Source: an uncultured bacterium
GTDB taxonomy: Bacteria > Margulisbacteria > WOR-1 > JAKLHX01
DNA: 64,000 bases
Reading direction: 5' to 3'
Assembly (NCBI GenBank): GCA_964633925.1
Contig: CAZWKB010000003.1
Span: 4,598-68,597 of the forward strand
This document shows, in pieces, positions 35,536-61,529 of this stretch; within the stretch, counting starts at the first letter, position 1, and each line of letters begins with the position of its first letter. Both the position numbers and the translations under genes were made by a program. The notes under the pieces are model-generated. The model saw only the letters and a program-made list of their open reading frames with translations, searched no databases and was not told the origin of the DNA.

Positions 35536-35570
35536 AAGGGGGAGGCTTAAACCTCTCCCTTTTATTTTGC
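35536..35570 (+). terminator. Rho-independent terminator
   Basis: GGGGGAGG-CTTAAA-CCTCTCCC (one G-U pair) followed by TTTTATTTT. Confidence 0.75.
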
Positions 35571-35633: not shown

Positions 35634-35662
35634 GTTAATAAGTGTATTAAATGTGATATAAT
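35634..35662 (+). promoter_or_regulatory. Promoter (GTTAAT-N17-TATAAT, extended TG) of the modification island
   Basis: GCGTTAATAAGTGTATTAAATGTGATATAATTATATTATAAAG. Confidence 0.6.
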
Positions 35663-35692
35663 TATATTATAAAGCAGTAGGAGGTTTTGAGG

Positions 35693-36604
35693 TTGTCAAA
35701 GTATATTATTGGTGGAGGGATTGCCGGTTTAATTGCGGCTTATTATAATAAAGAATATAAGATTATTTCTCAAGATATTGGCGGTCAAATGGTTTCTAAA
35801 AATGTTGGCCCAAGAATATTAGAAGTAAATCAATATTCTAAAGAATTTCTTAATGATTTAGGCATAAAAGAATGCCCTATCAAAATCGCTAAAATAGGTT
35901 ATAAAGTAGAAGGAAAGCTTGTAAATTCAATATCTGAAGACTTAAGAAAAAAATATTATATTAAGTCAAGATGTTTACATACGGCAGCTATTGTACCAAG
36001 TTCAATAATGTCAGACGGTAAGAGTTTTATTGAATATTTCGATATTGATTGGGACAAAGTTGTTAGTATTTTAGTAAATAGTATAGAAAAACCTATAAAC
36101 GGTAAAGTTAGTTTAATCGATACTACAAATCATATCTTAAAAGTAGAATCTGATGGTTCTGAAATTTTAAGATATGATAGTTTGGTATCGACAATTCCTG
36201 CACCGGTATTCTTTAAAATTTCAAACTTGCAACCAGAACAAGAACTTAAGTATGTTCAAAAGGTTTTTGTAGTAATGAATGAAGACCAAATTGACTTTGG
36301 GGAGTTTGATTATATATATTTCCCAGACTCAGCTCACGGATATCATAGGATATCTAAAACAGGAAATGGAAAGGCTTCAATAGAATATACGACAAATAAG
36401 AGTTATAAGTCTATAATTCAAACTTGGTCAATGTATTCTCGCGAACATCACGTTATTCCTGTTGGTCAGATTCAGAGCGGTAAGGTTCAAGAAATAAATG
36501 ATATTTTGTTTCTTGGAAGATATGCAAGTTGGGACCATGATATAAAAACAGATGATATTGTCAAAATTTGTAGAGATGGGGGTTTGATTAATGCAAAACG
36601 ATAA
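35693..36604 (+). CDS. FAD/NAD(P)-binding Rossmann flavoprotein (UDP-galactopyranose mutase / amine-oxidase-like)
   Basis: IIGGGIAGLIAAYY is GxGxxG at the N-terminus. C-terminal FLGRYASWDHD resembles the UGM GRxxxYxYxxMD motif. TTG 35693 lies 8 nt after AGGAGG. Confidence 0.55.
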   Translation: MSKYIIGGGIAGLIAAYYNKEYKIISQDIGGQMVSKNVGPRILEVNQYSKEFLNDLGIKECPIKIAKIGYKVEGKLVNSISEDLRKKYYIKSRCLHTAAIVPSSIMSDGKSFIEYFDIDWDKVVSILVNSIEKPINGKVSLIDTTNHILKVESDGSEILRYDSLVSTIPAPVFFKISNLQPEQELKYVQKVFVVMNEDQIDFGEFDYIYFPDSAHGYHRISKTGNGKASIEYTTNKSYKSIIQTWSMYSREHHVIPVGQIQSGKVQEINDILFLGRYASWDHDIKTDDIVKICRDGGLINAKR

Positions 36605-37547
36605 AGACAAGCTTAAGCATTTGTGGGACGTTCAGTTAGAATTTAACAGGAAGTTTTACAGGGCAAAGATAGGTAAAGAAATGGAAGACATGACTATGGA
36701 AGAAAAAGTATTTTGGTCTAAAAACCAATTGCTTTCTATAGTAAAAGAATCAATGGAAGTGCTGGATGAAATTCCGAATTGGAAAGAGCATCGCAATATT
36801 GAAACAGAATTTATTCCTTCGAATTTATATGAAGAAATAATCGATGTCAATAAATTCTCAGTAGGACTTGCACAAATCTGGGGTATGACCTTTGAAGATT
36901 ATTATGAGGAATATCTTAGAAAAAGCTGGGTTGTTGACCAGAGATGGACACAAGAACATGATTTAAAACTTATTGACAAAGACGAAAAGATTGCAGCAGT
37001 TGACATTGATGGCGTCTTAGGAGAATATCCATTTTGGTTCTTGGAGTTTGTTCGGGCGAGAGTTGGACAGAAATTTAATTCATTAGAAGAAGCAAAGGCA
37101 GGGCTTGGTACGATTTATTATGAAAGACTTAAGTCTGACTATCGCCAGTCAGGATGGAAATCTTCTATGCCTGCTTGCAAACATGCTTCAGAATTTACTA
37201 ATTTACTTCATCAAAAAGGATATAAAGTGGTAATTCTTACAGCACGCCCTTATAAGGAATATTACACTATTTATCCGGACACATTAAAGTTCCTTAAGGA
37301 AAACAATATATATTTCGACGCTATTATTTGGGATAAAGAGAAACATCTTAAAATCATAAAAGAATTTCCTAAAATGCTTTTTATGGTAGAAGATTGTATT
37401 GAGATTGCGATCGATGTTGCAAAAGAAGGTTATGTGGTTTTTCTTAAAGATTGTTATGACAATACTAATCGTATTCCATCTGAATTAAGTAATTTGATTA
37501 TACCGTTTATAGACCTTCTAGATATAGTCGAAAAGTGGAACATATAA
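36591..37547 (+). CDS. Fusion: all-alpha NTP pyrophosphatase (dimeric dUTPase/MazG-like) + HAD 5'(3')-deoxyribonucleotidase-like domain
   Basis: N-terminal half: LWDVQLEFNRKF...ESMEVLDEIPNWKEHR...EEIIDVNKF...EYLRKSWVVDQRW. C-terminal half: AAVDIDGVLGEY (DxDxV), VVILTARP and FMVEDC. Confidence 0.6.
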   Translation: MQNDKDKLKHLWDVQLEFNRKFYRAKIGKEMEDMTMEEKVFWSKNQLLSIVKESMEVLDEIPNWKEHRNIETEFIPSNLYEEIIDVNKFSVGLAQIWGMTFEDYYEEYLRKSWVVDQRWTQEHDLKLIDKDEKIAAVDIDGVLGEYPFWFLEFVRARVGQKFNSLEEAKAGLGTIYYERLKSDYRQSGWKSSMPACKHASEFTNLLHQKGYKVVILTARPYKEYYTIYPDTLKFLKENNIYFDAIIWDKEKHLKIIKEFPKMLFMVEDCIEIAIDVAKEGYVVFLKDCYDNTNRIPSELSNLIIPFIDLLDIVEKWNI

Positions 37548-37590
37548 ACATATTAGGCACCCTGTGTTTGTTAATCTAGCAGGGTTCTAG
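37548..37590 (+). repeat. 43-bp intergenic element, copy 3
   Basis: ACATATTAGGCACCCTGTGTTTGTTAATCTAGCAGGGTTCTAG. Internal ACCCTG/CAGGGT 6-bp stem. Contains a GTTAAT hexamer. Confidence 0.85.
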
Positions 37591-37624
37591 AAGGTGTATA
37601 TTTAAGGTGAAGGGGGTTTTTAAA

Positions 37625-38053
37625 ATGGCAATTTTGCTTTTCGTCGGCTGCGATAAGACTGGCAAAAGTACACTTATGAAAAATATCTTAAAAAGAACAA
37701 ACCAACATATTTGCGTGGACAGGTTTACTCCATGTCAGTATGTTTATGGGAGGCTTCATAATAAAAATTCAACTCCAAGTTTGGAAAGTTTTAGAAATTT
37801 GGAAAGTTTTTTAACAAAATCTCCTATTCCAGTTATGTTTGTTCATGTTTTTGCCGATACTGAAGATATTAAGAAAAGGTTTATAGAACATGATGAAAAA
37901 GATATTGATTTACAACAGATTGATTATGTAAAGCAACAATATAGGCAGTATTTAGAAAATACTTCTTTAAAAGTATTAAATATAAACACTTCTAAATATT
38001 GTATAGATGAGTGTATGGAACAAATTCTGTTAACAGCTGAACGCTTATTATAA
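37625..38053 (+). CDS. Small P-loop (deoxy)nucleotide kinase-like protein
   Basis: MAILLFVGCDKTGKST has Walker A at the extreme N-terminus, as in dNMP/thymidylate kinases. 142 aa. ATG 37625 follows GAAGGGGG. Confidence 0.5.
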   Translation: MAILLFVGCDKTGKSTLMKNILKRTNQHICVDRFTPCQYVYGRLHNKNSTPSLESFRNLESFLTKSPIPVMFVHVFADTEDIKKRFIEHDEKDIDLQQIDYVKQQYRQYLENTSLKVLNINTSKYCIDECMEQILLTAERLL

Positions 38054-38066
38054 GGAGAGATTTAAT

Positions 38067-39104
38067 ATGAAAGCAAAATTGGGAATGGGTGGTTACTTTG
38101 TAAATCCTGTTGACCATCCTGAAAGAATAATCAGATATGCATATGATATGCTAGATATTAGGATTTTTGATACTTCTCCAGCATATGGTGCTAGTGAAGA
38201 ATTTTTTGGGCATGCGCTTAGAGACTATCAGAGGGAGTCCTATTTATTGTCTACTAAGACAAAGGCAGCTACAGTCAAAGAACTTCATTTGTCTTTGGTA
38301 AATAGTTTAGGTAAACTCAATACTGACTATGTAGACTTTTATTTTGGCCATTCGTTTATAGATGATGACGAAACCTTGGAAAAATCTATGAACGTTTTAC
38401 ATGAGATGAAAAATATTAAGGACAAAGGGTTTATAAAAAGTGTAGGTGTTTCTGGGCATTCAGTTACTGCTGCAATGACTGCAATAGAAAGTGGATTTGT
38501 AGATATAATAATGGTACCATTTTCTTTAATGCATAGGGAGTTTGAATCTATTATTCAATGTGCAAAAGAAAAAGGAATTAGTGTAGTCACTATGAAAAAC
38601 TTCGCAAGCGGAATATTGCTTGGAGGGCCTTCTGATAATGAATTTAAACGCACTGTGACATTGCAAAAAGTTATGAATTTTTCTGCATACAATGGTGACT
38701 TAATCATTCCGGCTTATCGTTCTATAGAACAATTACAACAAATAGCAAATGCATATTGCTTTGCTGAAAAACTATCTGAAAAAGAAATTATGATTTTAGA
38801 AAATCAGATAGTTGATTTTTTTGGTTCTGACTTTTGTAGGTTTTGCAACGAATGCAGGCCATGCCAGAAATATGGTTGGGCAATGTCGCAGCCCGGTATA
38901 TTAAAATGCGCAATATATCAAGAAAAGTTTGGACTTGACATGAAAGACAGTTATGAAAAATATAAATATAATGTAAATGACTGTAAAGACTGTGACAGCC
39001 AATGTTCTTCTAATTGCCCGTTTGGAATAAATATTAAAGAGAAAATGCAACAGGCACATGATTTATTTTCAGGAGTTGATAAAGATGAAACGATATCTAA
39101 ATAA
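38067..39104 (+). CDS. Aldo/keto reductase with C-terminal Fe-S (ferredoxin-like) cysteine clusters
   Basis: AKR-like FDTSPAYGASEEFFGHAL...DYVDFYFGHS. The C-terminus carries CRFCNECRPC and CKDCDSQCSSNCP. Confidence 0.6.
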   Translation: MKAKLGMGGYFVNPVDHPERIIRYAYDMLDIRIFDTSPAYGASEEFFGHALRDYQRESYLLSTKTKAATVKELHLSLVNSLGKLNTDYVDFYFGHSFIDDDETLEKSMNVLHEMKNIKDKGFIKSVGVSGHSVTAAMTAIESGFVDIIMVPFSLMHREFESIIQCAKEKGISVVTMKNFASGILLGGPSDNEFKRTVTLQKVMNFSAYNGDLIIPAYRSIEQLQQIANAYCFAEKLSEKEIMILENQIVDFFGSDFCRFCNECRPCQKYGWAMSQPGILKCAIYQEKFGLDMKDSYEKYKYNVNDCKDCDSQCSSNCPFGINIKEKMQQAHDLFSGVDKDETISK

Positions 39105-39576
39105 GGAAGACAGATATAATACTATTATTTTAGGGACTCTCGTTGACTTCATGAATAATTTGATTATCAAGTTTGAAGAACTTAAAAGACCAAAGTCTGT
39201 AATTAAGTTTATGAAAATGTCAAGGTCATTCTGCCTAAAAGTTATAGATTGGTACTTTCAAAATCTTGATGACAAATATAAGCATGATGTAATAAATGAA
39301 ATGAAAAAACTTGAAATAATAGTAAAACAAAAGACTGAAGCCATTAGGGAATTTAAAGAAATGGAAAAAATAGAATCAAATATGGTTGTTGTTACAGAAG
39401 ATTTTTATGAAATTTGTGAATATGCTTTGCTTGTCTGTATGAAATGTAAGGCAGGCAAAGAACAAATTGCAGAATGCAAGTTAAAGGAAGCTATGATAAG
39501 AAATAACGTTCCAGTTATGCATTTGGAAATTTCTGATGATGGTTGCCCTTATAAATATAATCAGGAGGTGCTTTAA
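39085..39576 (+). CDS. Hypothetical helical protein with C-terminal Cys motif
   Basis: ATG 39085 follows AGGAG and overlaps the AKR 3' end by 20 nt. Carries CMKCKAGKEQIAEC...GCPY. Confidence 0.4.
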   Translation: MKRYLNKEDRYNTIILGTLVDFMNNLIIKFEELKRPKSVIKFMKMSRSFCLKVIDWYFQNLDDKYKHDVINEMKKLEIIVKQKTEAIREFKEMEKIESNMVVVTEDFYEICEYALLVCMKCKAGKEQIAECKLKEAMIRNNVPVMHLEISDDGCPYKYNQEVL

Positions 39577-39577
39577 C

Positions 39578-40669
39578 ATGGATGTAGTTAGAGAAAAGAC
39601 AGTTAAGAAAATATTGCCGTATGTAAAGCTTATTGAAAAAGAAGCTTTGAAAGGCCCGATATCGTTGCATATTTTAGTTACTGACTACTGCGTCAACCGG
39701 TGTAATATGTGCGGTCATTGGAAAACTAAAAATCGCAATAATTTGGACATTTCTATTTTAAAAGAAATATGGGATGACTGTAATGAAAATGAAGTAGAGT
39801 CAATCTGCTTAACTGGCGGTGACCCAATTCTCCATCCAGATTTTGATAAAATTCTGGATATGAAAAGAAATTTTGACCTTGGAATTATTTGCACAGGTAA
39901 TTTTAAAAAGAATTTCGATTTTTCGAAATTGGCAAGCTTAAGGTGGATACGCTTTTCTATTGATTCTCTAGACCCTGCTAGATACACTTTTATTAGGGGC
40001 CTCGATAATTTATATGGAACGATTTTGCCTAACGTTAGAAAGGCTCAAGAGCATCAAAAAGAGGTTGGAATAAATTTCACAATACAGAAAAGTAATTGCA
40101 TGGACATTCGCGACATTATTAAGTTTTCTGCAGAAAATAATATCTATAGACTTATGATTTATCCTATGCACGGTGATGGAAACCTCTGTATTGGTAGAGA
40201 TGAAATTGAAATAATTTTAGAACAACTAAACGATATGATAAGTAAGAACTATCACAAAAGAATACCCGAAAACAATTTGCAGTTTCTTTATGACAGCCTT
40301 ATACAGGCATATTCACAAGATGAAGATGTTAGAAAAGTGACATTCGGTAATTATCCATGCATCATAAATAAAATTCATTTAGCTATAGGTTCTGATGGAA
40401 ATGTATTTCCGTGCGAGATGATTGCTGATGATACAGATGAATATGGAGAAAGAACATTTTGGGAATTGCAAAAGTTCAGCGATTGCTTAATGGAAAGACA
40501 AACTTCATTTACAGGCCTTGGCAATGTTAATTCTGAAAGCATTATAAAAATATGGAAAAGAAATTTCAACAAAACATTCTGTTCCGGAAAATGTGATAAT
40601 TGCTTTAGTAGATATCAGCCAATAAACCAAGCATACTATGAAAATCGTAATAAAAAGGTATTTATATAA
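39578..40669 (+). CDS. Radical SAM enzyme with SPASM/twitch-type C-terminal cysteine clusters
   Basis: CVNRCNMCGHW is CxxxCxxC, with LTGGDPILHPDF following. C-terminal YPCIINKIHLAIGSDGNVFPCE and CSGKCDNCFSRY. ATG 39578 follows AGGAGGTG. Confidence 0.7.
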   Translation: MDVVREKTVKKILPYVKLIEKEALKGPISLHILVTDYCVNRCNMCGHWKTKNRNNLDISILKEIWDDCNENEVESICLTGGDPILHPDFDKILDMKRNFDLGIICTGNFKKNFDFSKLASLRWIRFSIDSLDPARYTFIRGLDNLYGTILPNVRKAQEHQKEVGINFTIQKSNCMDIRDIIKFSAENNIYRLMIYPMHGDGNLCIGRDEIEIILEQLNDMISKNYHKRIPENNLQFLYDSLIQAYSQDEDVRKVTFGNYPCIINKIHLAIGSDGNVFPCEMIADDTDEYGERTFWELQKFSDCLMERQTSFTGLGNVNSESIIKIWKRNFNKTFCSGKCDNCFSRYQPINQAYYENRNKKVFI

Positions 40670-40691
40670 AGAAAATTGCCGTCTATAATGT

Positions 40692-40720
40692 GTTAATAAA
40701 TGATTCTTTTGTGATATAAT
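40692..40720 (+). promoter_or_regulatory. Promoter (GTTAAT-N17-TATAAT, extended TG)
   Basis: TGTTAATAAATGATTCTTTTGTGATATAATAATATTATAAAC. Confidence 0.6.
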
Positions 40721-40749
40721 AATATTATAAACCAATAAAGGAGGATATT

Positions 40750-41805
40750 ATGAGTAACGAAACTACGCGTATCAATGAACTTAGGAGAGTTATGGGGACA
40801 CTTCCAGACCAAGACCCAAAACTTGAAACAAAATTTTTAAAAGGTGTTGAAGGAATTTCGGTAAAACTTATCGAATCTGTCATTGCAAACCCTTATAAAC
40901 CAATGTATATTCTGGCTACTACATGCTGGGGTAAAGAGGTAGATAAATGGGAAATGACATCGCCTGAAAACAGATTTGAAGTTGTTAAGGCAGCTTTAAG
41001 AGGCCAAGCGTTACCATTGGCATTGGAAGTACCTCAATTTGCTTTTGCAGTAGAAGGGCCATCACGTGCGGCATTCGATCAGATTGCAAGAGCAAGACTT
41101 GGTGTTGTATTTTCTGCAAGAGGTATGAGGGATAACAATTGGAAAGATGCTTCAATAAGGATTCCAACTGCACTTTGGCCAACAGAAGATGAAATTCAAA
41201 TTTTCGATGAATGGCGCAGTAATATCATCAAAACACCTACAGCAGAGCAGCAAAAAGCAATTGACAAATGCAATATTTTTTGGAATATCAAGCGTGTTAT
41301 GTGCGATGTTAAACAGACATATGCAGATATTGTTGACGTTGGTAAAGGTTCTTGGCAGGCAGCTCGCTGTGTACTACCTCTTTATGTAGTTTATGGTTTT
41401 TCGTTTTCGATTAACTTTATGGCATTGAGGAATATGTGCAGTACCAGAATGAAATTCTGCGAAATGGAAGATACAGTTGCTATTGCATGGCAAACAGCTA
41501 GGGCTGTGTCGGAAGCATATCCGTTGCTTGGTTCATTTTTAAGACCTGGTTGTGATTGGGCAGGCAAATGCCAGTACCACAAATCTTATACACTGTCTGA
41601 AATGTTTGGCTGTTTGTTTAAGGAGTGTGGAAGGAATTCATGTCCCGACAGCAATGACTATGCGGAGTTTAATGAAACATGCACAAACTATAAGGACCTT
41701 GAGGAACAGCTCGGTATTCATATTACAAGGCCCGATGAATGGCCTAATTTCGAAACTTTTGATAGCCTTCCCGATATTGAAAAAGCAAGGTTTATGGAAG
41801 ACTAA
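40750..41805 (+). CDS. Divergent ThyX-fold (flavin-dependent thymidylate synthase-like) protein with a Cys-rich C-terminal extension
   Basis: FAFAVEGPSRAAFDQIARARLGVVFSARGMR aligns to the ThyX RHRxxSxxxxSxRY motif but with RHR changed to RAR. AARCVLPLYVVYGFSFSINFMALRNMCSTR aligns to the ThyX ARxVLPL...N.R.L.NF..LR helix. 351 aa. Confidence 0.6.
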   Translation: MSNETTRINELRRVMGTLPDQDPKLETKFLKGVEGISVKLIESVIANPYKPMYILATTCWGKEVDKWEMTSPENRFEVVKAALRGQALPLALEVPQFAFAVEGPSRAAFDQIARARLGVVFSARGMRDNNWKDASIRIPTALWPTEDEIQIFDEWRSNIIKTPTAEQQKAIDKCNIFWNIKRVMCDVKQTYADIVDVGKGSWQAARCVLPLYVVYGFSFSINFMALRNMCSTRMKFCEMEDTVAIAWQTARAVSEAYPLLGSFLRPGCDWAGKCQYHKSYTLSEMFGCLFKECGRNSCPDSNDYAEFNETCTNYKDLEEQLGIHITRPDEWPNFETFDSLPDIEKARFMED

Positions 41806-41817
41806 ATTTTAATAAGG

Positions 41818-41852
41818 TGGGCCAATGAGCTTTGCGCCATTGGCCCATTTTA
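41818..41852 (+). terminator. Rho-independent terminator
   Basis: 10-bp stem TGGGCCAATG/CATTGGCCCA with a 10-nt loop, then TTTTA. Confidence 0.65.
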
Positions 41853-41870
41853 TAACAAGGAGAGACTAAT

Positions 41871-42404
41871 ATGCATGGATTAGGTTTAAGGCAAGTGATT
41901 GAAAATCTTCAATTGTTTGTAGTTGAAAAAGGAAAGCCTGTCTTAGTTGACGGACAAGGTACTATTGAAGTCCTCAATCATAGTTTTAATATTTCTTATA
42001 ACAGTCAAATTGATATTGCTGATATTAAGAAAAATATGGTTGAATATTATAATAGTCACAAGATAGACTTGAAAAGCATCGAGGAACTGGAAAAGGAAGA
42101 ATACAGTAAAATCGAAAATGAACTTTTATCAAAGTTTTCATTATTTGATGAAGATTTGCATTCCAGAAGAGTTTTATGGTCGGATGACTGTTGTATCAGT
42201 TTAATTCACTATCTCGTTCGGGATTCAAAAATTTACTGCTATGTACACCTAAGAAGCTCTGAAGTTGAACAGAAATTATTTTCTGATATGTACTTAGTGC
42301 ATAAAATAACAAGAGCTTTACAAGACAAATTAAATATAGATGTTGCAATGATTTTTGTAAATGGGCATAGTATGCATAAGCTTGTATTTAAAGTTAATGA
42401 GTAG
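41871..42404 (+). CDS. Truncated ThyA-fold enzyme (thymidylate synthase / dCMP hydroxymethylase superfamily), 177 aa
   Basis: Ungapped match to the E. coli ThyA core: Cys108 = C146, exactly 20 residues before Arg128-Ser129 = R166-S167; Asp139 = N177; His169 = H207 (GHSMHKL against GGDTHLY). SRR = R126/R127. Confidence 0.65.
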   Translation: MHGLGLRQVIENLQLFVVEKGKPVLVDGQGTIEVLNHSFNISYNSQIDIADIKKNMVEYYNSHKIDLKSIEELEKEEYSKIENELLSKFSLFDEDLHSRRVLWSDDCCISLIHYLVRDSKIYCYVHLRSSEVEQKLFSDMYLVHKITRALQDKLNIDVAMIFVNGHSMHKLVFKVNE

Positions 42405-42423
42405 GTTTTGCCCAATCATAAAT

Positions 42424-42465
42424 GGCCCTGTCGTATATCTTGACTGCATGGAATGCGACAGGGCC
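42424..42465 (+). promoter_or_regulatory. GC-rich 10-bp perfect hairpin between the TS-like gene and the polymerase gene
   Basis: GGCCCTGTCG (42424-33) pairs with CGACAGGGCC (42456-65); 22-nt loop; no T-run. Confidence 0.5.
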
Positions 42466-42486
42466 TGCATTAAAGAGGTGAATAAA

Positions 42487-45400
42487 TTGTCAGTAAAAAA
42501 GATTAAAAAGGTTGTAAAACAGCCAGAACCTCCAGTTAAGAAAGTTGTTAAAAAGGTTAAGAAGACATCAGATATTGACAAACAGGTCGAAAAAGCTAAA
42601 AAAGCAGTCGAAAAGATTATACCTATTATGGACAAAAAATATTCTGGTATGATTAGTGCTAGAAAAGTCCCTATGCCTACTATCGACACAATACCATTTA
42701 TTCCGGTACATAATCATACAGATTATTCAACAAAAGATTCTGTAATGTCTATTGATGAATATATTAATAGAGTTGCTGAATTAGGTCTCCCAGGTGCAAC
42801 AGTAACAGAGCATGGAAACATGTCAAGTGCTTTGAAATTTTATAAAGCTTGTAAGGCTTTTAAAGATTCAGACCGTCCAGATTATTCAATCAAACCAATT
42901 CTTGGTAATGAGATTTATACTGATGACAATATCGAATTGAAAATTGAAGCTTCACTTGAAAGGCAAAAAAGGAAAAAAGATGATGAGGCTATAGATAGTG
43001 GTTATTTGGATGACGATTATGGCCATTTAGTCCTGCTTTCTCCAACAAAGGAAGCGTATCATGAATTGCTAATGACTAATGCAAAAGGATTTAGGGACGG
43101 GTTTTATAAACGCCCCAGATTAACTCACGAATATATATTGAACGAAGCTTCTAAGCATCAAATTGCAACGTCTGCTTGCTTGGCATCGAAGTTTAATTAT
43201 TATATAAGGTGTGGTCAGGATAAAGCCGCTAAACAGCTTCTTAGTGATTATAGAGATGCTTTTGGTGATAGGTTTTATGTGGAACTCCATTTTAACGAAC
43301 TTGAAATACAGAGATATTGCACCAATAAAATTCTTGAATTTGCAAAGGAATTAGGAATACCTTGGATTGTTGGTCTTGATGCACATTATGCAAGAAAAGA
43401 ACACGTGCAGTATCATGATTATTTTAAGGATATGTATTACGGCGGTTCTATTGCAGAACCTTCAAAATTTAGATATAGTACTAGAGAATTATATCTAAAA
43501 GATTCTAATGAAATAATACATTCTGCAATGAAATGGGATTATGGAATTGACAGAAAAGATATTATTTCAGGTTTACATAAGACAATGGAAATTTATGATA
43601 GAACTGATTTCGAAATGGAGACTGGCGTTCTTAAATTCCCAAGGTTTAGTATGGAACCAAACTTTGACGCTAATGCAGAATTAAAAAGGAAATGTATTAG
43701 AGGTTATAACAAAAGAAAACGGCAAGGATTACTTCCTGCACCGGGATTTACTGAACAAGATTATAAAGACCGTTTTAATAAGGAATTTCCAGTAATAGTC
43801 GGAAAAGGATATGCAGATTACTTCTTAATTGTTTCAGAATTTACAGACTATTGCGTTGAAACTGACTTATTCAAAGGTCCAGGTAGAGGTAGTGCTGCAG
43901 GTGCTCTTATATCATGGTTGTTAGAAATAACAAAGGTTGACCCAATAAGATATGGATTATTCTTTGAAAGGTTTTTGAACGAAGAACGTGCCGACCCGCC
44001 AGATATTGACCTTGACTTTGACAGCGAAAGAAGATATGAAATTGAGGAGCTGTTAATAAAGAAAAATGGTCCTGAAAAAGTTGCTCATATAATGTCGTTT
44101 GGTACTTGGGGTTGTAAAAGTGTAATTGGAGAATTATCTAAGGTATTTGGCTTACCGTGGGGAATTATAGATAAATTCAAAAAATTGTGTAATGATGACC
44201 AGACTATTCAGCAAAATTTGGATAGAATAATGGGTGTATCTTGTATTAAGCGAATGCGAAAAGGCGAAGAAGTTGAAATTCGCGAAACTCCAGCACCAGA
44301 TATTAAAGAGTTTGTAGAAAATAATACAGAATTTTTTGAGGCTTGTAAGTTCTATGAAGGTAAAGTAAGGAACTATTCAATGCATGCTTCAGGCGTTGTT
44401 GTAACTCCTGGAAAAATGGAAGAATTAGCACCTATTAATAGAGCATCAGGACAAATCGTTACAGGCTTACAAGAAGGTGGAGATATTCGTGAAATATCAG
44501 ATATAGGGTTACTTAAGTTTGATATTTTGGGATTAAATAACTGTACTATTCTTAATCGAGCATTACAATCTGTTAAAAGAAGAAAAGGAATAAATATTGA
44601 CATTGATGCAATAGACCTTGAAGACGACAAACTGTTAGAACGATTTAGGCAAGGTCATACAGCTGGAATATTTCAGTTCGAATCATCAGGTATTACAAAG
44701 TTTATAAAAGACATTCAGCCGCAACGATTTGAAGATTTAATTATTGTTAATGCTGCATATCGCCCCGGTACATTAAGAGCTGGCGGTGTTGATATGATTA
44801 TCGAAAATAGGCATTCAGATGATATTGACTATATGCATCCAGAGATTGAGGCAGTGTTAGGGCCGACATATAATGTTTTGGTTTATCAAGAACAGCAAAT
44901 GGCTTTAATGCATAGAGTTGGCGGTTTTACAATGGTTGAAGCTGATAAATCAAGAAAAACAATAAAGTATATAAACAAAGCGTCTACTGCATCTCCTGAA
45001 AATCTTAAAAAATTCTATGATATGATTGAACATTTTAAAGAAGGTGCTCATCAAAAAACTGGATTGGCATATGAAAAACTACAAAAGCTTGTTGATGCTA
45101 TGGCATCCGCAGCTGATTATTCTTTTAATAAATCTCACAGTTGTAGTTATGCTATAATAGCTATGCAAAATATGTTCTTGAAACATTACTATCCAGCAGA
45201 CTATGCAGCTGCATTCCTAAGCAGGACAAAAAATGAGGAAAAGAAAGGTAAAGCAGGGCATAAAACTGGTGAAAACAAAATAGAAAAATACGTTAAAATG
45301 GCAATTTCAGAAATGAAATTAGAGATTGGTACGCCCGACATCTCCATATCCGGAATCGATTGGGTACCGAAAGATGATAAAACGATTATTCCTTCTTTAA

Positions 45401-46086
45401 CGTTTATTAAAGGTGTTGGAGAGGCTGCAGTTCCTGAAATTGTCGCACACCAACCATACACCTCGCTAGAGTCATTCTTTGGAGCTGACATGCAGTGGAG
45501 GTTAGTTAATAAGAGGGTTGTGGAGGCTTTAATCCAGACAGGGTCTTTCGATTCTCTATATCAGCATAGGAAAACGTTATTGGAAGCATATACAAGGTGG
45601 AATAATGGCGGTAAAAAGAATTTTTCAAAAATATTGGCAAAAGTTGAAGAAGAAATGGGACAAGAGGATTTGACTTTTGATGAAAAAATGGCTTTGGAAA
45701 AAGATTTGTTTGGGTTTTATTTTAGTGCTAACCCTTTAGATAAATATGGCGATGTTATCCAGAAAAAAGGTATTAAAGAAGTTAGCGAACTTGCCAAAGG
45801 TAAGAAATGGAAACGAGGAACACTTTATGGCATAGTTACTAAAGCTTATCCATATAAAATTTCTAAAGGTACAATGTGTTTTGTAGATATTCAAGGCAAG
45901 GATGAAACAAAGGCAAGTATCACTGTATGGCCAGAGATGTATACTCCATATAAAGATTTGCTTAAAGAAGGAAATATAGTTGCGATTAAAGTTAAACCTG
46001 GTAAGAGTAAAAATGATGAACCTTGTTTTTATATAGATGAGGACGATGAAAGAAAAAAGGTTATTTTGATGGACGATTTGATATAA
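42487..46086 (+). CDS. dnaE: DNA polymerase III alpha subunit (DnaE-type, PHP domain) with Lys-rich N-terminal extension
   Basis: PHP motif FIPVHNHTDYS...TEHGNM, a palm/fingers core (GPGRGSAAGALISW, DIDLDF, YSMHASGVV) and a C-terminal OB region. TTG 42487 lies 6 nt after AAGAGGTG. The ORF is open from 42361. Confidence 0.8.
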   Translation: MSVKKIKKVVKQPEPPVKKVVKKVKKTSDIDKQVEKAKKAVEKIIPIMDKKYSGMISARKVPMPTIDTIPFIPVHNHTDYSTKDSVMSIDEYINRVAELGLPGATVTEHGNMSSALKFYKACKAFKDSDRPDYSIKPILGNEIYTDDNIELKIEASLERQKRKKDDEAIDSGYLDDDYGHLVLLSPTKEAYHELLMTNAKGFRDGFYKRPRLTHEYILNEASKHQIATSACLASKFNYYIRCGQDKAAKQLLSDYRDAFGDRFYVELHFNELEIQRYCTNKILEFAKELGIPWIVGLDAHYARKEHVQYHDYFKDMYYGGSIAEPSKFRYSTRELYLKDSNEIIHSAMKWDYGIDRKDIISGLHKTMEIYDRTDFEMETGVLKFPRFSMEPNFDANAELKRKCIRGYNKRKRQGLLPAPGFTEQDYKDRFNKEFPVIVGKGYADYFLIVSEFTDYCVETDLFKGPGRGSAAGALISWLLEITKVDPIRYGLFFERFLNEERADPPDIDLDFDSERRYEIEELLIKKNGPEKVAHIMSFGTWGCKSVIGELSKVFGLPWGIIDKFKKLCNDDQTIQQNLDRIMGVSCIKRMRKGEEVEIRETPAPDIKEFVENNTEFFEACKFYEGKVRNYSMHASGVVVTPGKMEELAPINRASGQIVTGLQEGGDIREISDIGLLKFDILGLNNCTILNRALQSVKRRKGINIDIDAIDLEDDKLLERFRQGHTAGIFQFESSGITKFIKDIQPQRFEDLIIVNAAYRPGTLRAGGVDMIIENRHSDDIDYMHPEIEAVLGPTYNVLVYQEQQMALMHRVGGFTMVEADKSRKTIKYINKASTASPENLKKFYDMIEHFKEGAHQKTGLAYEKLQKLVDAMASAADYSFNKSHSCSYAIIAMQNMFLKHYYPADYAAAFLSRTKNEEKKGKAGHKTGENKIEKYVKMAISEMKLEIGTPDISISGIDWVPKDDKTIIPSLTFIKGVGEAAVPEIVAHQPYTSLESFFGADMQWRLVNKRVVEALIQTGSFDSLYQHRKTLLEAYTRWNNGGKKNFSKILAKVEEEMGQEDLTFDEKMALEKDLFGFYFSANPLDKYGDVIQKKGIKEVSELAKGKKWKRGTLYGIVTKAYPYKISKGTMCFVDIQGKDETKASITVWPEMYTPYKDLLKEGNIVAIKVKPGKSKNDEPCFYIDEDDERKKVILMDDLI

Positions 46087-46154: not shown

Positions 46155-46856
46155 ATGCAGATTATTAAACCTGGCTTCGCAATAGAAGAAGGCATTGATG
46201 GTTTAGCTATCCTTAGAAAAATCGAAAAAGCAGGTAGAACTTGCTATAAATCTGAGGATAAAATAACTGATGAGTCGGCAAAAAAGTTCGTTGCTTCTTT
46301 AATTAAAAGCGGCCACGAGGCAATGATTGAACATCATTTTGTAACTGTAACTTTTACTGTAGATAGAGGAGTTACACATGAAATTGTTCGGCACCGTATT
46401 GCTTCATATGCACAAGAATCTACAAGGTATTGCAATTATGGTAAAGAAAAAAGCGGCTCAGAAATTACCGTAATTGATATTCGTGAAATTATGGAAGCAG
46501 AAGTTGGTAAGACCTATAAGCATCCAGTTAATAATGAACAGATTCTTGTAACTGCAGAACTTGTTAATTACTGGATTTCTGAATGGTTAGGTGCTATCGA
46601 AGACTCTGAAAGGCACTACATATCGCTTGTAAATTCTGGTTGTCCTGCACAATTGGCACGTTCGGTGCTATTACATTCTGTCAAGTCTGATATCGTTGTT
46701 ACAATGGACTTAAGAGAGTGGAGGCATTTCTTTAGGCTTCGCGCATTAGGTACTACTGGAAAACCTCATCCACAGATGGTGCAAGTAGCTAAACCTTTGT
46801 TGGACGAAATGAAAGTCCAAATCCCGGTTGTCTTTGATGACCTTTCATATGCTTAA
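46155..46856 (+). CDS. thyX: Flavin-dependent thymidylate synthase ThyX (canonical)
   Basis: GVTHEIVRHRIASYAQESTRY contains the full RHRxxSxxxxSxRY signature. 233 aa. Confidence 0.9.
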   Translation: MQIIKPGFAIEEGIDGLAILRKIEKAGRTCYKSEDKITDESAKKFVASLIKSGHEAMIEHHFVTVTFTVDRGVTHEIVRHRIASYAQESTRYCNYGKEKSGSEITVIDIREIMEAEVGKTYKHPVNNEQILVTAELVNYWISEWLGAIEDSERHYISLVNSGCPAQLARSVLLHSVKSDIVVTMDLREWRHFFRLRALGTTGKPHPQMVQVAKPLLDEMKVQIPVVFDDLSYA

Positions 46857-55802: not shown

Positions 55803-55831
55803 ATATTCTACATTCGGGTGGGATTAAGATG
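55798..55831 (+). repeat. 34-bp perfect direct repeat, copy 2
   Basis: Identical to 55532-55565. Provides the RBS and ATG of the DUF2493 gene. Confidence 0.95.
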
Positions 55832-56188
55832 TTTAAAGTTATAGTTGCAGGTTGTAGAGATTTTTCAGATTATGAAGGATTAGAAAAATATTTAGATTAT
55901 GTTTTTAAAGATATAGACAAATCTGAATTAGAAATTGTTTGCGGTTGTGCAAGAGGCGCAGATAAATTGGGTTCTAAATATGCTGAAAATCGCGGAATAA
56001 AAGTTTCTATGTTTCCGGCTGACTGGGATAATTACGGAAAGTCTGCTGGATATAGAAGGAACGCAGAAATGGCTAATTATTCAGATGCTTTAGTAGCTTT
56101 TTGGGATGGAAAATCTAAAGGGACTAAACATATGATTGATTTAGCAAAAACTAAGAAATTAAAGATTAGGATAAAATATTTTAAGTAG
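55829..56188 (+). CDS. DUF2493 / SLOG-family (YspA-like) protein
   Basis: IVAGCRDFSDY...IVCGCARGADKLGSKYA...FPADWDNYGKSAGYRRNAEMA...AFWDGKSKGTKHMI. Confidence 0.7.
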   Translation: MFKVIVAGCRDFSDYEGLEKYLDYVFKDIDKSELEIVCGCARGADKLGSKYAENRGIKVSMFPADWDNYGKSAGYRRNAEMANYSDALVAFWDGKSKGTKHMIDLAKTKKLKIRIKYFK

Positions 56189-57400: not shown

Positions 57401-57622
57401 ATGATTAAGTATATTGTATATCCCGGTAGTATGATGAGTAAAAACGACAACCAAATACATCATATAAGTGCTCATCAACTTATATGTCTTTATGGAGTTA
57501 AACGTGAAGAATGCATTATTGCAAGTTCCACAGACAGAATACAAAAAATGGACTCTTCACATTTAACTCCATTATATCCTCGTTATGATGGGAACTATAA
57601 ATTAGATAAGGAAGGTGTTTAA
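57401..57622 (+). CDS. Small hypothetical protein
   Basis: 73 aa, preceded by GGTGGTG. No motif recognised. Confidence 0.4.
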   Translation: MIKYIVYPGSMMSKNDNQIHHISAHQLICLYGVKREECIIASSTDRIQKMDSSHLTPLYPRYDGNYKLDKEGV

Positions 57623-57626
57623 TTTG

Positions 57627-58232
57627 ATGGAAATTATTGCATTCGAGGGAATTGACAAATGTGGTAAAGCTACTCAGACAAATGTTTTAGTAGAAAAGCT
57701 TAGAAAAGCTGGTAAGAATGTAGTCAAATCTGAATTTCATAGGTATGATACACCAACTGGCAAGCTCATACAGGAATGGTTATACAAGAAATATGATGTT
57801 GACGACCAAACAATTGAATTTATTATGGCGGCAGACAAACAGGCTCAACAACAATGGTTTAAGCAATTAAATCATGATGGTGTTGACTTTTTAGTTTTGG
57901 ACAGATATATTTTAAGTCAAGAAGTTTATGCTATATCAAAAGGTCTTAATAAAATTTTCGTTCAGATGTTACAGAGCTGTTTAATAAAGCCAGGCGTGGA
58001 AATTCTTATCGATATACCGGCAGATTTGAGCATGAATAGAAAAGGCAAGCATGGCGATAATGATAGATATGAAGAGGATTTTAAGTTCTTAAATTCAGTC
58101 AGAACCAATTATCTAAGCTTATGTTCTCAAAATGGTATCGATAGGTTAAGGACCATAATCGATGGTACTCAGACAATCGATAAAGTCAGCGATGATATTT
58201 GGAACTATGTAAAAAAATTATACAAAATTTAA
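57627..58232 (+). CDS. tmk: Thymidylate (dTMP) kinase
   Basis: IAFEGIDKCGKATQ P-loop, DRY motif (LVLDRYILS) and a lid region. ATG 57627 follows AAGGAAGGTG. Confidence 0.8.
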   Translation: MEIIAFEGIDKCGKATQTNVLVEKLRKAGKNVVKSEFHRYDTPTGKLIQEWLYKKYDVDDQTIEFIMAADKQAQQQWFKQLNHDGVDFLVLDRYILSQEVYAISKGLNKIFVQMLQSCLIKPGVEILIDIPADLSMNRKGKHGDNDRYEEDFKFLNSVRTNYLSLCSQNGIDRLRTIIDGTQTIDKVSDDIWNYVKKLYKI

Positions 58233-61040: not shown

Positions 61041-61529
61041 ATGGAAAGCAGAATTAGTTGGGACCATTATTTTTTACTTATGGCAAAGGTTGCAGCCACA
61101 AGAGCAACTTGTTTTAGTGACCCAAAAGGGGCAGTCATCGTATCAAACAAGAACATTGTGTCTACCGGATATAACGGTGCTCCGAGTGGTATTAAAGATT
61201 GTAAGTATGGCTACGGTGTCTGTCTTAAAAGGGAAATGGGATTTGAGCATGGAACTGGACATCATGTTTGCAGAGCGTCGCATGCTGAAGCTAATGCAAT
61301 TATTCAGGCAGCTAAAAACGGTATTAGCATCAACGAAGGGACTTTATATTCTACACATAAGCCATGTCATGAATGTGCTAAACTAATAATTAATTCTGGC
61401 ATAAAGAAAGTCGTTTACATTCATGATTATGCCGGAACTGACTGTTTAGAATTGTTTGGCGAAGCCGGAATTAGATGTGTTCATGTTGTCGATTTCGACT
61501 TACAGAAAATGTTAAATCAAATAAAATAA
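61041..61529 (+). CDS. dCMP deaminase (ComEB/Cd-like)
   Basis: HAEANAI and PCHECAKLI zinc-binding motifs, with NGAPSG upstream. Confidence 0.85.
   Translation: MESRISWDHYFLLMAKVAATRATCFSDPKGAVIVSNKNIVSTGYNGAPSGIKDCKYGYGVCLKREMGFEHGTGHHVCRASHAEANAIIQAAKNGISINEGTLYSTHKPCHECAKLIINSGIKKVVYIHDYAGTDCLELFGEAGIRCVHVVDFDLQKMLNQIK

Follow-up and report, generated by a model that had tools for sequence, protein, structure and literature searches.

A conserved nucleotide-chemistry gene module in an uncultured phage, with a plausible role in pre-replicative pyrimidine modification

We found that an uncultured phage of an anaerobic bacterium carries a real nucleotide-chemistry gene cluster within the 64,000-nucleotide stretch analysed here (the window), and that this island is a conserved module rather than a one-off, its gene set being found again in dozens of independent contigs, which exceeds chance. 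The product of the cluster is plausibly an unusual DNA building block, which the encoded folds suggest would arise by pre-replicative pyrimidine modification. We observed directly which genes are present, their folds and conserved residues, how they co-occur and fuse, and their positional replacement. Our preferred reading, to which we give a little short of an even chance, is a pathway in three layers acting on free pyrimidine nucleotides before replication, for which we infer the substrates, the products and the incorporation into DNA.

Layout and conservation of the island

All eight open reading frames of the island (A to H) lay on the plus strand where an earlier reading of the letters alone (the sequence-only reading) had placed them, and nearly all of its fold calls were borne out by profile and structure searches.

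35538..35568, plus strand: terminator-like hairpin, GC-rich and followed by a T run, read off the sequence (a scan flagged the same hairpin on the minus strand, 35555..35542)
35635..35662, plus strand: promoter-like site before A, TTAATA-16-TATAAT with TG upstream of the -10 (extended -10), by consensus match
35687..36604, plus strand: A, minimal FAD enzyme of UGM / amine-oxidase (GR2) fold, 303-305 aa, likely start 35693
36591..37547, plus strand: B, fusion of an all-alpha NTP pyrophosphatase and a HAD phosphatase
37607..38053, plus strand: C, minimal Tmk-like P-loop nucleotide kinase, 142-148 aa, likely start 37625
38067..39104, plus strand: D, aldo/keto reductase with Fe-S Cys clusters (PF00248, weak Fer4_18, Cys motifs)
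39058..39576, plus strand: E, helical protein, 172 aa, with a C-terminal DUF5651 Cys motif (PF18892, E 3e-6)
39536..40669, plus strand: F, radical SAM enzyme (CxxxCxxC) with a SPASM-type auxiliary-cluster domain, likely start 39578
40693..40720, plus strand: second promoter-like site, before G, TTAATA-16-TATAAT with TG, a twin of the site before A, by consensus match
40750..41805, plus strand: G, ThyX-fold flavoprotein paralogue with a Cys-rich C-terminal extension of ~90 aa (PF02511, Foldseek)
41871..42404, plus strand: H, mini ThyA-fold enzyme, 177 aa (family profile against PDB), overlapping the start of the Pol III alpha gene
42361..46086, plus strand: I, DnaE-type DNA polymerase III alpha, the module's usual neighbour, likely start ~42397
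46155..46856, plus strand: J, canonical ThyX with RHR..S.RY and GHE..EH intact (PF02511 E 2e-38; TIGR02170 119.5 bits, above cut-off)
57615..58232, plus strand: canonical thymidylate kinase Tmk (PF02223 E 1.3e-27)
61041..61529, plus strand: dCMP deaminase, a dUMP supply (PF00383 E 1.5e-24)

Judged by its sequence, the hairpin ends the preceding gene (34697-35521) and forms the 5' limit of the island, and the first promoter-like site lies just 3' of it. One promoter at 35634 had been proposed to drive six genes; a promoter-like plus-strand site with an extended -10 does lie there, but promoter-like sites in the region numbered 68 against 56 +/- 8 in shuffles, not clearly above them, hence promoters before A and before G are no more than plausible. 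The probable start of A follows RBS spacing and the public call of 303 aa, and that of F the public call of 363 aa.

For co-occurrence we counted 35 contigs of related viruses, each extending 8 kb or more to both sides of G. The results showed that G was accompanied by A and B in all 35, by C in 33/35 and by H in 32/35, and that Pol III lay within 10 kb of G in 26/35, in agreement with a module of nucleotide metabolism that is linked to the replicative polymerase; a dCMP deaminase homologue was near the module in 19 loci. The order of the genes differed between loci, suggesting that their linkage is selected and not inherited as a block. The G family (79 clusters at E<=1e-30) was virtually absent from the 185,579 cellular genomes searched.

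Instead of the single exotic set first described, the module has, as judged from gene content, three components: a widely distributed, uncharacterised core (A, B, a reductase step and G), a T4-like branch (H and C), and a clade-specific insert of D and F. The set had also been thought unseen; the core is in fact already present in cultured Mycobacterium cluster D and Gordonia cluster DV phages, in which an oxidoreductase, a nucleotidase, a FabG-like reductase, DnaE and a 'ThyX-like thymidylate synthase' occur in the same order. These genes are annotated under generic names and have no known function. About 85 cultured actinophages carry the core of A, HAD, reductase and ThyX-like genes, all without H and C, and no report of unusual DNA in them was found in the literature searched. 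Because the core is shared with phages grown in the laboratory, the function of the island is open to testing.

The ThyX-like enzyme and thymidylate supply

The assignment of G to a ThyX fold distinct from the canonical enzyme was confirmed. G matched PF02511 with E=1e-13 and a score above the Pfam cut-off, and reached 26.9 against TIGR02170, whose cut-off is 87.9. Its AF2 model had a pLDDT of 91, and the best 50 PDB matches listed by Foldseek were all ThyX or PolB (TMt 0.63-0.77). G retains six nucleotide- and FAD-binding arginines in common with ThyX (R106, R114, R116, R127, R206 and R233). It lacks the histidine of the RHR motif (RHR to RAR; H79 lost), L88, G125 and D128 stand in place of ThyX H53, S88 and Y91, and five cysteines of its tail are invariant (C268, C274, C288, C293 and C311). 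Our inference is that G has kept the binding of a (d)UMP-like nucleotide on its flavin but has given up the canonical folate/NADPH site, in which case it would depend on partner redox proteins and/or another carbon donor. In our preferred reading, the second layer would be the conserved core: the UGM-like FAD enzyme A, the ThyX-like flavoenzyme G, the HAD domain of B and a single redox step.

A rather unlikely alternative, though the strongest of those considered, is that the module serves nucleotide-pool supply and sanitation, leaving DNA canonical and only boosting dTTP for the phage DnaE polymerase. G would then be a true, if divergent, thymidylate synthase whose flavin is reduced by dedicated partners, A and an SDR or D, not directly by NADPH; B would give dUMP and clear unwanted (d)NMPs, C would be a second dTMP kinase, and H an accessory that binds or methylates dCMP. 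Consistent with this, every dUMP- and FAD-binding arginine of ThyX is kept in G, its Pfam score exceeds the cut-off, and its homologue is annotated as the only (ThyX-like) thymidylate synthase of the cultured actinophages. Apart from the window, L001 and L002, no locus had a canonical ThyX near the module, and just 2/35 full-flank loci had one within 10 kb. In genomes without it, G could be the thymidylate synthase. Inteins in G of two relatives suggest an essential enzyme, and swappable reductases (classical SDR, extended SDR, Fe-S AKR) fit an electron supply.

The sequence-only reading had held that ordinary dTTP supply is covered elsewhere, and the Pfam matches of J, Tmk and the dCMP deaminase agree; with these three in the phage, dTTP supply does not require G or C. 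On the pool-supply explanation, the presence of canonical ThyX in this phage and in L001 and L002, and of canonical Tmk in this phage, beside G and C, is a duplication left unexplained. The loss of H53, H79, S88 and Y91 in G and its score far under the TIGR02170 cut-off also speak against it. In H, the invariant Asp of cytosine type and the catalytic Cys, together with the fusions to C, point away from dTMP as the product, and known thymidylate synthesis has no role for a radical SAM or a UGM-like enzyme.

GATC occurred 5 times in the window against 168 expected, and several relatives lacked GATC, CATG or CTAG. Such avoidance indicates that sites with both C and T in them have been under restriction pressure, and argues against complete bulky replacement of C or T, which should have relieved that pressure. 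A bulky, fully protective base replacement is thus disfavoured, and unmodified DNA, as under pool supply, agrees with the avoidance.

The cytosine branch and the UGM-like enzyme

As a single sequence, H gave a weak ThyA-fold match; its family profile matched the TS-fold entries 9iqu/9iqc (E=8e-16) and, over the full length, T4 dCMP hydroxymethylase 1b49 (5e-15), which establishes the ThyA fold proposed for this 177-aa protein before the polymerase gene. The top alignment of the profile was to a 234-aa TS homologue with RSQN..D. Across the family (50 sequences), R99, C108, R128-S129, D139 and H169 are invariant, C108 being the catalytic Cys and the Arg/Ser residues the phosphate binders. D139 occupies the position of ThyA N177 and T4 CH D179, so H has the same Asp that is the cytosine signature of T4 dCMP hydroxymethylase; these diagnostic active-site residues have been established experimentally (Lee et al. 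2026, PMC13326640). In the H of the window, position Cys-3 is Asp and the residue matching ThyA D169 is Glu, and a D169N signature was found in marine relatives (21/50 sequences). Unlike ThyA and T4 CH, H lacks ~50-70 residues of the folate-binding region, seen as a gap in the profile alignment, so folate-dependent hydroxymethylation is not assured.

C gave weak Tmk matches as a single sequence, and its family conserves GxDxxGK(S/T), DR(F/Y)..S..(V/A)Y and a lid Arg, in keeping with a small, Tmk-like P-loop kinase. C and H are fused in six loci (L025, L033, L034, L037, L056 and L064), and C is fused to a UDG-family domain in L049 and L053. Both proposed halves of B were supported. Residues ~1-120 resemble MazG or dimeric-dUTPase-like all-alpha NTP pyrophosphatases (a weak dUTPase_2/MazG match by single sequence), and residues ~130-300 a HAD phosphatase of the 5'(3')-deoxyribonucleotidase / PNK-phosphatase type. 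The family profile matched dimeric dUTPases (1e-4) and HAD enzymes/dNT, with acidic MazG-type metal motifs, DxDGV, TARP and DD conserved; the halves are encoded separately in L002 and in actinophages.

The T4 logic of a TS fold, an all-alpha NTP pyrophosphatase and a small kinase was thus strengthened by the cytosine-specific Asp of H and the H-kinase fusions, and would form the first layer of the preferred pathway. The pyrophosphatase half of B, whose matches are weak, may convert a canonical pyrimidine dNTP (dCTP and/or dUTP) to the monophosphate. The conserved Cys of H would attack C6 of dCMP while the Asp at the N177 position reads cytosine N3/N4, adding a one-carbon or oxygen substituent at C5. 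From the pattern in the window (Asp at Cys-3, an acidic residue at position D169) a product of hydroxymethyl type is predicted, and from the D169N pattern of marine relatives 5-hydroxy-dCMP. C would phosphorylate the product, and host NDP kinase and the adjacent DnaE polymerase would carry it into DNA. The likeness drawn to the thymidine hypermodification clusters of M6, ViI, SP10 and phiW-14 breaks down at the components that define them: H carries Asp instead of Asn, F resembles MoaA/SPASM enzymes rather than SPL, and neither an aGPT-Pplase nor a PLP enzyme occurs here.

A has the GxGxxG and UGM-like C-terminal motifs first read in it. Its predicted model (AF2 pLDDT 95) matched UDP-galactopyranose mutases best in Foldseek (E 2e-14, TMq 0.67-0.70), followed closely by LAAO, PPO and renalase, and its family profile matched UGM with E 3.5e-8, spanning the 'Y.R.T' and 'GRxxxW' motifs. 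None of its 55 homologues has a functional name.

These matches bear on an improbable explanation, a glycosylated 5-hydroxy- or 5-hydroxymethyl-cytosine as in RB69, DLP3, RL38JI and T4. H and C would supply the hydroxylated dCTP analogue, A as mutase, HAD as sugar-phosphate phosphatase and SDR (or D and F) would supply an NDP-sugar, and a glycosyltransferase (GT) would decorate DNA after replication. The published 5hoC-glycosylation clusters share a TS homologue, a Tmk-like 'nucleotide kinase', a dCTPase and a HAD phosphatase (dNT-like matches), and also have GTs and an NDP-sugar mutase (UGM in RL38JI). The closest solved relatives of A are UGMs, whose substrate-binding Arg motifs it retains, but it lacks their uridine-binding helical domain (305 aa; TMt ~0.44). 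The D169N signature in marine H fits 5hoC, with 15/21 such H in loci that also carry an extended SDR closest to dTDP-sugar enzymes, an SDR shared by 11/14 GT-bearing loci; however, GTs occur in only 14/68 loci, 5-7 kb from G, and the H of the window has Glu, not Asn. Searches with Pfam/PHROGs of most ORFs of at least 100 aa from ~22-64 kb, beyond the structural region (1.4-22 kb), and precomputed Pfam calls for ~12 kb of flanking contig gave no GT, and no sugar-1-phosphate nucleotidyltransferase was seen. Glycosylation would also leave G without a role, and GATC avoidance speaks against so bulky a group in this phage.

The reductase slot: D, E and F

The calls for these three proteins were confirmed. 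D matched PF00248 (E=2.6e-27) and Fer4_18 weakly, and its translation has the catalytic D-Y-K-H and a C-terminal two-cluster ferredoxin-like Cys domain (CxxCxxCxxC and CxxCxxxCxxxCP). E is a helical protein with the DUF5651 Cys motif, and F has Radical_SAM and SPASM matches, its best solved relatives being MoaA (1e-12), SuiB, SkfB, PqqE, viperin (2e-4) and BlsE (1e-3).

It is very improbable that D, E and F are an unrelated RiPP or cofactor-maturation cassette inserted by chance in a nucleotide operon, with a SPASM radical SAM enzyme that modifies the Cys-rich peptide E, or with a maturase of the Mo/W-cofactor type. The small, Cys-rich E between D and F, the presence of SuiB, SkfB and PqqE among the relatives of F, and its best NCBIfam matches (tungsten-cofactor maturase, MoaA, SPASM peptide maturases) fit such a cassette. 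Yet all these NCBIfam matches are far under the family cut-offs (e.g. 64.6 vs 380 bits), and E appears to be a lineage-specific insert: L001, where D abuts F, and L068 keep D and F without a counterpart of E, and L067 has two unassigned small ORFs there. The close homologues of F number only ~28, all on phage-like contigs, and, as the sequence-only reading had implied, no characterised RiPP or cofactor pathway matching the island was found.

Among the loci, D was present only in the window, L001, L067 and L068, always immediately 3' of C. D and F occur together in these four anaerobe-associated loci only, all four having the order C-D-F-G, and the sources are anaerobe-associated bins (Sedimentibacter, Thermosipho) and one SASP-encoding phage. 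Elsewhere the same slot, directly after C and often overlapping it, holds an NDP-sugar-type SDR in most relatives, and the actinophages have a FabG-like SDR. This positional replacement speaks against chance insertion, and in the preferred three-layer pathway D and F would form the third layer, an oxygen- and NAD-independent replacement of the SDR.

Genomic setting and layout of the nucleotide island

The window is the arm of an uncultured myovirus genome in which the genes for replication and nucleotide metabolism lie, with all genes on one strand and a G+C content of about 34%. The contig pieces upstream of it carry sheath, tube and baseplate genes, and those downstream carry genes for a ligase, a sigma factor, a small acid-soluble spore protein (SASP) and a pyrimidine-dimer glycosylase. 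The SASP gene (5845-6132 of L069, the contig past the 3' end of the window) is on the opposite strand and adjoins the phage sigma factor and DNA ligase genes; its presence among the downstream phage genes points to an endospore-forming host, a spore-forming Firmicute.

Eight plus-strand genes, here called A to H, lie between a terminator-like hairpin (about 35538-35568) and a DnaE-type polymerase gene, exactly where the sequence-only reading had placed them:

35687-36604, plus strand: A, flavoprotein
36591-37547, plus strand: B, fusion of an all-alpha NTP pyrophosphatase and a HAD phosphatase
37607-38053, plus strand: C, small kinase
38067-39104, plus strand: D, Fe-S aldo/keto reductase (AKR)
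39058-39576, plus strand: E, DUF5651 protein
39536-40669, plus strand: F, radical SAM/SPASM enzyme
40750-41805, plus strand: G, ThyX-fold paralogue
41871-42404, plus strand: H, mini ThyA-fold protein
42361-46086, plus strand: Pol III alpha (DnaE)
46155-46856, plus strand: canonical ThyX

The fold assignments of A to H were each confirmed by Pfam, PHROGs and NCBIfam, some of them weakly from the single sequence. A promoter had been claimed in front of A. Identical promoter-like sites (TTAATA-16-TG-TATAAT) were found before both A and G, which is plausible, but the scan was not significant over shuffled sequences. The ordinary dTTP supply is present in the window as canonical ThyX, canonical Tmk and dCMP deaminase, and given the first two, the argument that G and C are redundant for dTTP holds.

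Several other features were observed in the window. The genes at 34697-35521 and 47745-48947 encode proteins with zinc-ribbon motifs and extended low-complexity stretches that are acidic or rich in Lys; the two match each other in tblastn, and the former stops at the terminator preceding the island. A YAcAr/SLOG-family (DprA-like) protein (55829-56188) and a NUDIX hydrolase (58902-59327) lie among the replication genes, and the SLOG protein was seen again in marine relatives (L025, 17121-17522). A tRNA scan found no tRNA genes in the window.

The cytosine-type ThyA fold and its kinase

Using a profile of 29 family members, we found that H matched TS-fold structures (E=8e-16) and aligned over its full length with T4 dCMP hydroxymethylase (gp42, 1b49; E=5e-15). 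The residues invariant across 50 members are the catalytic Cys (C108), the Arg of the RR pair, the Arg-Ser phosphate binders, the His of GD.H.Y, and an Asp (D139) at the position of ThyA N177, which the profile places opposite D179 of the T4 enzyme. Experiments have shown that dCMP substrates go with N177D, non-methyl products with an acidic residue at L143, and flavin- and O2-dependent 5-hydroxy-dCMP (5hodCMP) synthases with D169N (Lee et al., NAR 2026, PMC13326640). The H protein of the window reads Asp (Cys-3), Glu at D169 (RSSE, Glu131) and Asp at N177, a residue pattern that is hydroxymethylase-like as far as sequence can tell. Asn at D169 was found in 21 of 50 H relatives, mostly marine. 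The window H is accordingly predicted to give 5-hydroxymethyl-dC (257 Da), and a marine D169N form such as that of L026 (5987-6478) to give 5-hydroxy-dC (243 Da) in an O2-dependent reaction. The top PDB match of the profile, 9iqu/9iqc, reads RSQN..D, a motif from which it would be a 5hodCMP synthase.

The kinase C carries the Tmk P-loop, DR(F/Y) and lid Arg motifs. In six related loci C and H are a single protein, and this fusion to a nucleotide enzyme favours a mononucleotide as the substrate of C.

The sequence-only reading had recognized the logic of T4 and SPO1 in the island, and this stood: a TS-fold enzyme, a dNTPase and a kinase feeding a phage polymerase are of the known T4/SPO1 kind. 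The succession proposed for the island, with an NTP pyrophosphatase, TS-fold C5 modification of dCMP and a dedicated kinase, is that of T4; in both, thymidylate synthase and dCMP deaminase are encoded apart from it. H and gp42 have in common the catalytic Cys, the Arg/Ser phosphate binders, Asp179 and the acidic residue at the L143 position. However, H is shorter (150-180 aa in the family and 177 aa in the window, against 246 aa in gp42). In the profile alignment it lacks the segment holding the folate-binding helix and the general base of ThyA and gp42, and a long insert of gp42 (1b49), about residues 45-100 (E60/ThyA E58, W80 segment), is left unaligned. Since this segment is missing from the alignment, the cofactor of H is uncertain. 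Moreover, the island kinase matches Tmk families and not gp1, its pyrophosphatase is fused to a HAD phosphatase, the glucosyltransferases of T4 were not found in the ORFs scanned at about 22-64 kb or in the flanking contig pieces, and A, G, D and F have no T4 counterpart.

A likeness to the thymidine-hypermodification clusters of M6, ViI, SP10 and phiW-14 had also been proposed, and it failed for the features that define them. These clusters and that of PaMx11 do resemble the island in having a P-loop kinase, a radical SAM enzyme and an FAD oxidoreductase near a TS-fold gene. They are defined, however, by a dUMP hydroxymethylase (Asn177), the DNA kinase 5-HMUDK, aGPT-Pplase amino-acid transferases, an SPL-like radical SAM isomerase and PLP decarboxylases (Lee et al. 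2018, 2021). In H an invariant Asp replaces Asn177, C is Tmk-like and fused to H in relatives, and F is MoaA/SPASM-like, with SPL absent from its profile matches. Among the PHROG and Pfam families, which include no dedicated aGPT-Pplase model, none for 5-HMUDK, aGPT-Pplase or a PLP enzyme matched the eight proteins.

The clusters of RB69, DLP3 and RL38JI share many enzyme classes with the module. Their glycosylated 5-hydroxycytosine (5hoC) pathways contain an N177D TS homologue, a Tmk-like nucleotide kinase and the all-alpha dCTPase, HAD phosphatase and NDP-sugar mutase classes (PMC13326640). A glycosylated 5-hydroxy(methyl)cytosine as in these phages would fit the marine relatives, in which H carries the diagnostic D169N and an SDR and a GT1 glycosyltransferase (GT) occur; GT1 was found in 14 related loci. 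For the window phage this product is improbable. Its H has Glu at D169, the known pathways have no ThyX-like enzyme whereas the module has G, and 5hodCMP synthesis requires O2, whereas relatives of the window phage come from anaerobes. The GT, sugar isomerase and nucleotidyltransferase of the 5hoC pathways were not found in the window. For GTs, Pfam and PHROGs gave none in most ORFs of at least 100 aa at about 22-64 kb, a scan that ended at the structural region (1.4-22 kb), and the precomputed Pfam calls gave none in about 12 kb past both window ends.

The flavin-based core, the reductase slot and a possible product

The fold of G is that of ThyX. The top 50 PDB matches listed by Foldseek were all ThyX or PolB (TMt 0.63-0.77, including PolB 4p5b), and the six FAD/dUMP-binding arginines of canonical ThyX are kept (R106, R114, R116, R127, R206 and R233). 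The signature RHRxxxxxxxS.RY is replaced by RAR...G.RD, with Leu88 at H53, Gly at S88 and Asp at Y91 (T. maritima ThyX numbering, after TM0449), and G scored 26.9 bits on TIGR02170 against a cut-off of 87.9. G further differs from ThyX and PolB in an added Cys-rich domain, a tail with five invariant cysteines, and in its constant linkage to A and B. In a large, mostly marine branch (L025-L066), two adjacent paralogues stand in place of G, one of about 270 aa without the RAR motif and Cys tail and one of about 235 aa that keeps both (e.g. L026, 9974-10789 and 10782-11492). This split into two subunits suggests a hetero-oligomeric ThyX-like enzyme. Inteins were observed in G of L019 (9986-11431; Hint and a homing-endonuclease-associated Hint domain) and L023 (9932-11920; Hint and LAGLIDADG), inserted just after the conserved 'SWQxAR' nucleotide-binding segment.

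The model of A (pLDDT 95) and its sequence profile both matched UDP-galactopyranose mutases (UGMs) best. A keeps GxGxxG (G9, G11) and both substrate/flavin arginine motifs, with R221 opposite 'FYRAT' of A. fumigatus UGM and G277-R278 in 'GRFGSW'. It lacks the uridine-binding helical domain of UGM, having 305 aa against 365-510 (TMt 0.42-0.49), and other GR2 oxidases (LAAO, PPO, renalase) scored almost as high. Foldseek did not single out a PaMx11-gp47-type lyase or an ordinary amine oxidase; UGMs came first by a small margin. Only one close protein, an uncharacterised phage protein, was found for A in BFVD. B keeps the MazG-type acidic motifs and all HAD motifs. Its N-terminal half matched dUTPase_2/MazG weakly (E 0.014) and, as a profile, dimeric dUTPases (1e-4), and a weak profile match to 5'(3')-deoxyribonucleotidases was also found. 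The two halves are separate genes in some lineages.

D combines the AKR catalytic residues with a two-cluster ferredoxin-like end; as a known AKR (YdjG, DkgA/B) it gave partial matches far under the cut-offs. F is one of about 28 closely related proteins, all on phage-like contigs, and its nearest solved relatives are MoaA, the SPASM peptide maturases SuiB, SkfB and PqqE, viperin and BlsE. D and F are confined to four loci (the window, L001 of a Sedimentibacter bin, L067 of a Thermosipho bin, and L068), in each of which D directly follows C. Clustering of all locus ORFs showed that the module of 32 other loci contains an extended SDR, mostly directly after C and often overlapping it. This SDR is closest to dTDP-glucose 4,6-dehydratase and dTDP-4-dehydrorhamnose reductase and has the T-T...YxxxK residues, while the dehydratase acid pair is absent. 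From position and habitat, we infer that D and F are a non-orthologous displacement of one redox step in strict-anaerobe phages. It is highly improbable that D, E and F form an unrelated RiPP or cofactor cassette: although the solved relatives of F include peptide maturases, F scored far under the cut-offs as a tungsten/molybdenum-cofactor or RiPP maturase, E is unconserved, and the F family is confined to the nucleotide module. E, which has the DUF5651 Cys motif, overlaps D and F and is probably a passenger. In L001, the closest relative, D abuts F with no counterpart of E, and in L067 two unrelated small ORFs occupy its position.

Base modification is a main way in which phage DNA counters restriction and CRISPR, and it yields new enzymes and nucleotide chemistry. 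Our leading reading, held tentatively at a little under an even chance, is that the module prepares a non-canonical pyrimidine dNTP ahead of replication. Its firmest part would be the conversion of dCMP to a C5-modified dCMP by H and then to the diphosphate by C, with B supplying monophosphates. The core (A, the HAD half of B, the redox step and G) would transform a uracil-type nucleotide in a second conversion, by flavin chemistry.

Restriction-site counts are evidence against this reading. GATC occurs 5 times in the window against 168 expected under a maximal-order Markov model (O/E 0.03), with reduced O/E also for CTAG (0.59) and CATG (0.67). In relatives, too, a single site has been purged: GATC in L014, L017, L030, L041, L057 and L061, CATG in L055, and CTAG in L049 and L053. 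Such avoidance implies that the sites are still exposed to restriction, which fits poorly with a bulky base in place of every C or T and is compatible with a small or partial modification. The product may even be canonical. A self-contained thymidylate/dNTP supply with dedicated electron donors, leaving the DNA canonical, would agree with exposed sites, while the redundancy of G and C for dTTP speaks for another role; we consider this supply reading somewhat unlikely.

Within the reading of a non-canonical dNTP, a more specific scheme can be drawn, to which we give little credence. ThyX is known to use formaldehyde via flavin-N5 iminium transfer. G, whose folate/NADPH histidines are lost, might similarly deliver to dUMP, from its flavin N5, an iminium made from an aldehyde or a sugar. 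The carbon unit would come from A, through flavin-N5-sugar iminium chemistry, together with the HAD phosphatase, and the SDR, or in anaerobes the Fe-S AKR and the radical SAM enzyme, would reduce or deoxygenate it. G and A, as paired covalent-flavin enzymes, would thus put more than a one-carbon unit on C5 of a pyrimidine mononucleotide, giving a new C-C-linked (polyhydroxyalkyl-type) pyrimidine dNTP before replication, beside the cytosine modified by H and C.

Conservation of the module and its cultured relatives

Literature searches found no described ThyX-like/UGM-like phage module, and the island has no DNA similarity to GenBank phages. More than 200 homologues of G were found in metagenomes, and 62 viral contigs carry a relative of it; among 1.84 billion representatives, its family forms 79 clusters at E<=1e-30. 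The single match in 185,579 cellular genomes was a phage-like MAG contig, which gives no prophage or host clue. No match to G, marine G2, A or H was found by tblastn in 50,697 phage records.

HMMs built from the window proteins were iterated against all ORFs of the related loci, and co-occurrence was counted in the 35 loci where G has 8 kb or more of sequence on either side. The results showed that A and B accompany G in all 35, C in 33, H in 32 and Pol III alpha in 26. As gene order varies among lineages, this linkage is kept by selection.

Other genes recur in these loci. UDG-superfamily domains are fused to C (L049, 7578-8531; L053, 7673-8584) or to the N-terminus of Pol III alpha (L007, 6141-9941), or stand alone (L048, 3211-3789; L067, 2704-3291). 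In several marine loci DnaE is split into two ORFs of 427 and 748 aa (L025, 5460-8991), and contigs of the marine branch have GroES/GroEL directly downstream and, in many cases, a class II RNR upstream.

Only the HAD half of B led to cultured relatives, matching 85 cultured actinophages. The gene order of the window recurs in three of them, Mycobacterium phage Hawkeye, phage Onyinye and Gordonia phage GOATification: 'oxidoreductase', 'nucleotidase/phosphatase', MazG-like, (methyltransferase), 'FabG-like reductase', DnaE and 'ThyX-like thymidylate synthase'. The HMM of A matched the actinophage oxidoreductases (E 3e-11 for Hawkeye gp70, and 2e-7), which also have the GRYGxW end; that of B matched the nucleotidase Hawkeye gp71 (E 1e-30), and that of G matched Hawkeye gp78 (5e-8) and Onyinye gp86 (1e-11). 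Like G, the actinophage ThyX-like protein has Leu at H53, R(Q/S)R for RHR and a C-terminal RPxC...C.F Cys motif, but it keeps S88 and has Phe at Y91. In the actinophages the MazG-like protein is separate, and the reductase in the slot before DnaE is a classical SDR, whereas the window has the Fe-S AKR and the radical SAM enzyme. A SAM methyltransferase, frequent in the actinophage set, has no counterpart in the window lineage. Genome announcements list these actinophage genes under generic names without function.

Homologues of H or C were not found in the actinophage neighbourhoods. Because cultured actinophages carry the core without H or C, the island is composite, consisting of an old, widespread and uncharacterised core, a T4-like branch of H and C, and the D/F variant of the redox step. 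The novelty lies in the families, in the invariable association of a ThyX paralogue with a UGM-like flavoprotein, and in the anaerobic D/F substitution. Four uncharacterised families, the 150-180-aa cytosine-type ThyA fold, the Cys-tailed ThyX paralogue, the minimal UGM-like flavoprotein and the phage-only radical SAM/SPASM enzyme paired with the Fe-S AKR, occur jointly in 60 or more viral contigs, whose sources are diverse and for the most part uncharacterised, with some contigs binned alongside anaerobes. About 85 cultured actinophages also have part of the set, where it had gone unnoticed. The module is widespread and coherent. Should its product be a new base, it would represent a flavin/ThyX-based route beside the known thymidylate-synthase-based ones and show a pathway rebuilt for life without oxygen. 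The module is directly testable, since cultured actinophages and a published in vivo assay exist.

Two further details were observed in the actinophages. GOATification gp73 (L072, 8379-9107) is a SAM-dependent methyltransferase, encoded between the genes for the MazG-like protein and the FabG-like reductase, and the DnaE of Onyinye is in two ORFs with a small ORF between them (L074, 7309-10857).
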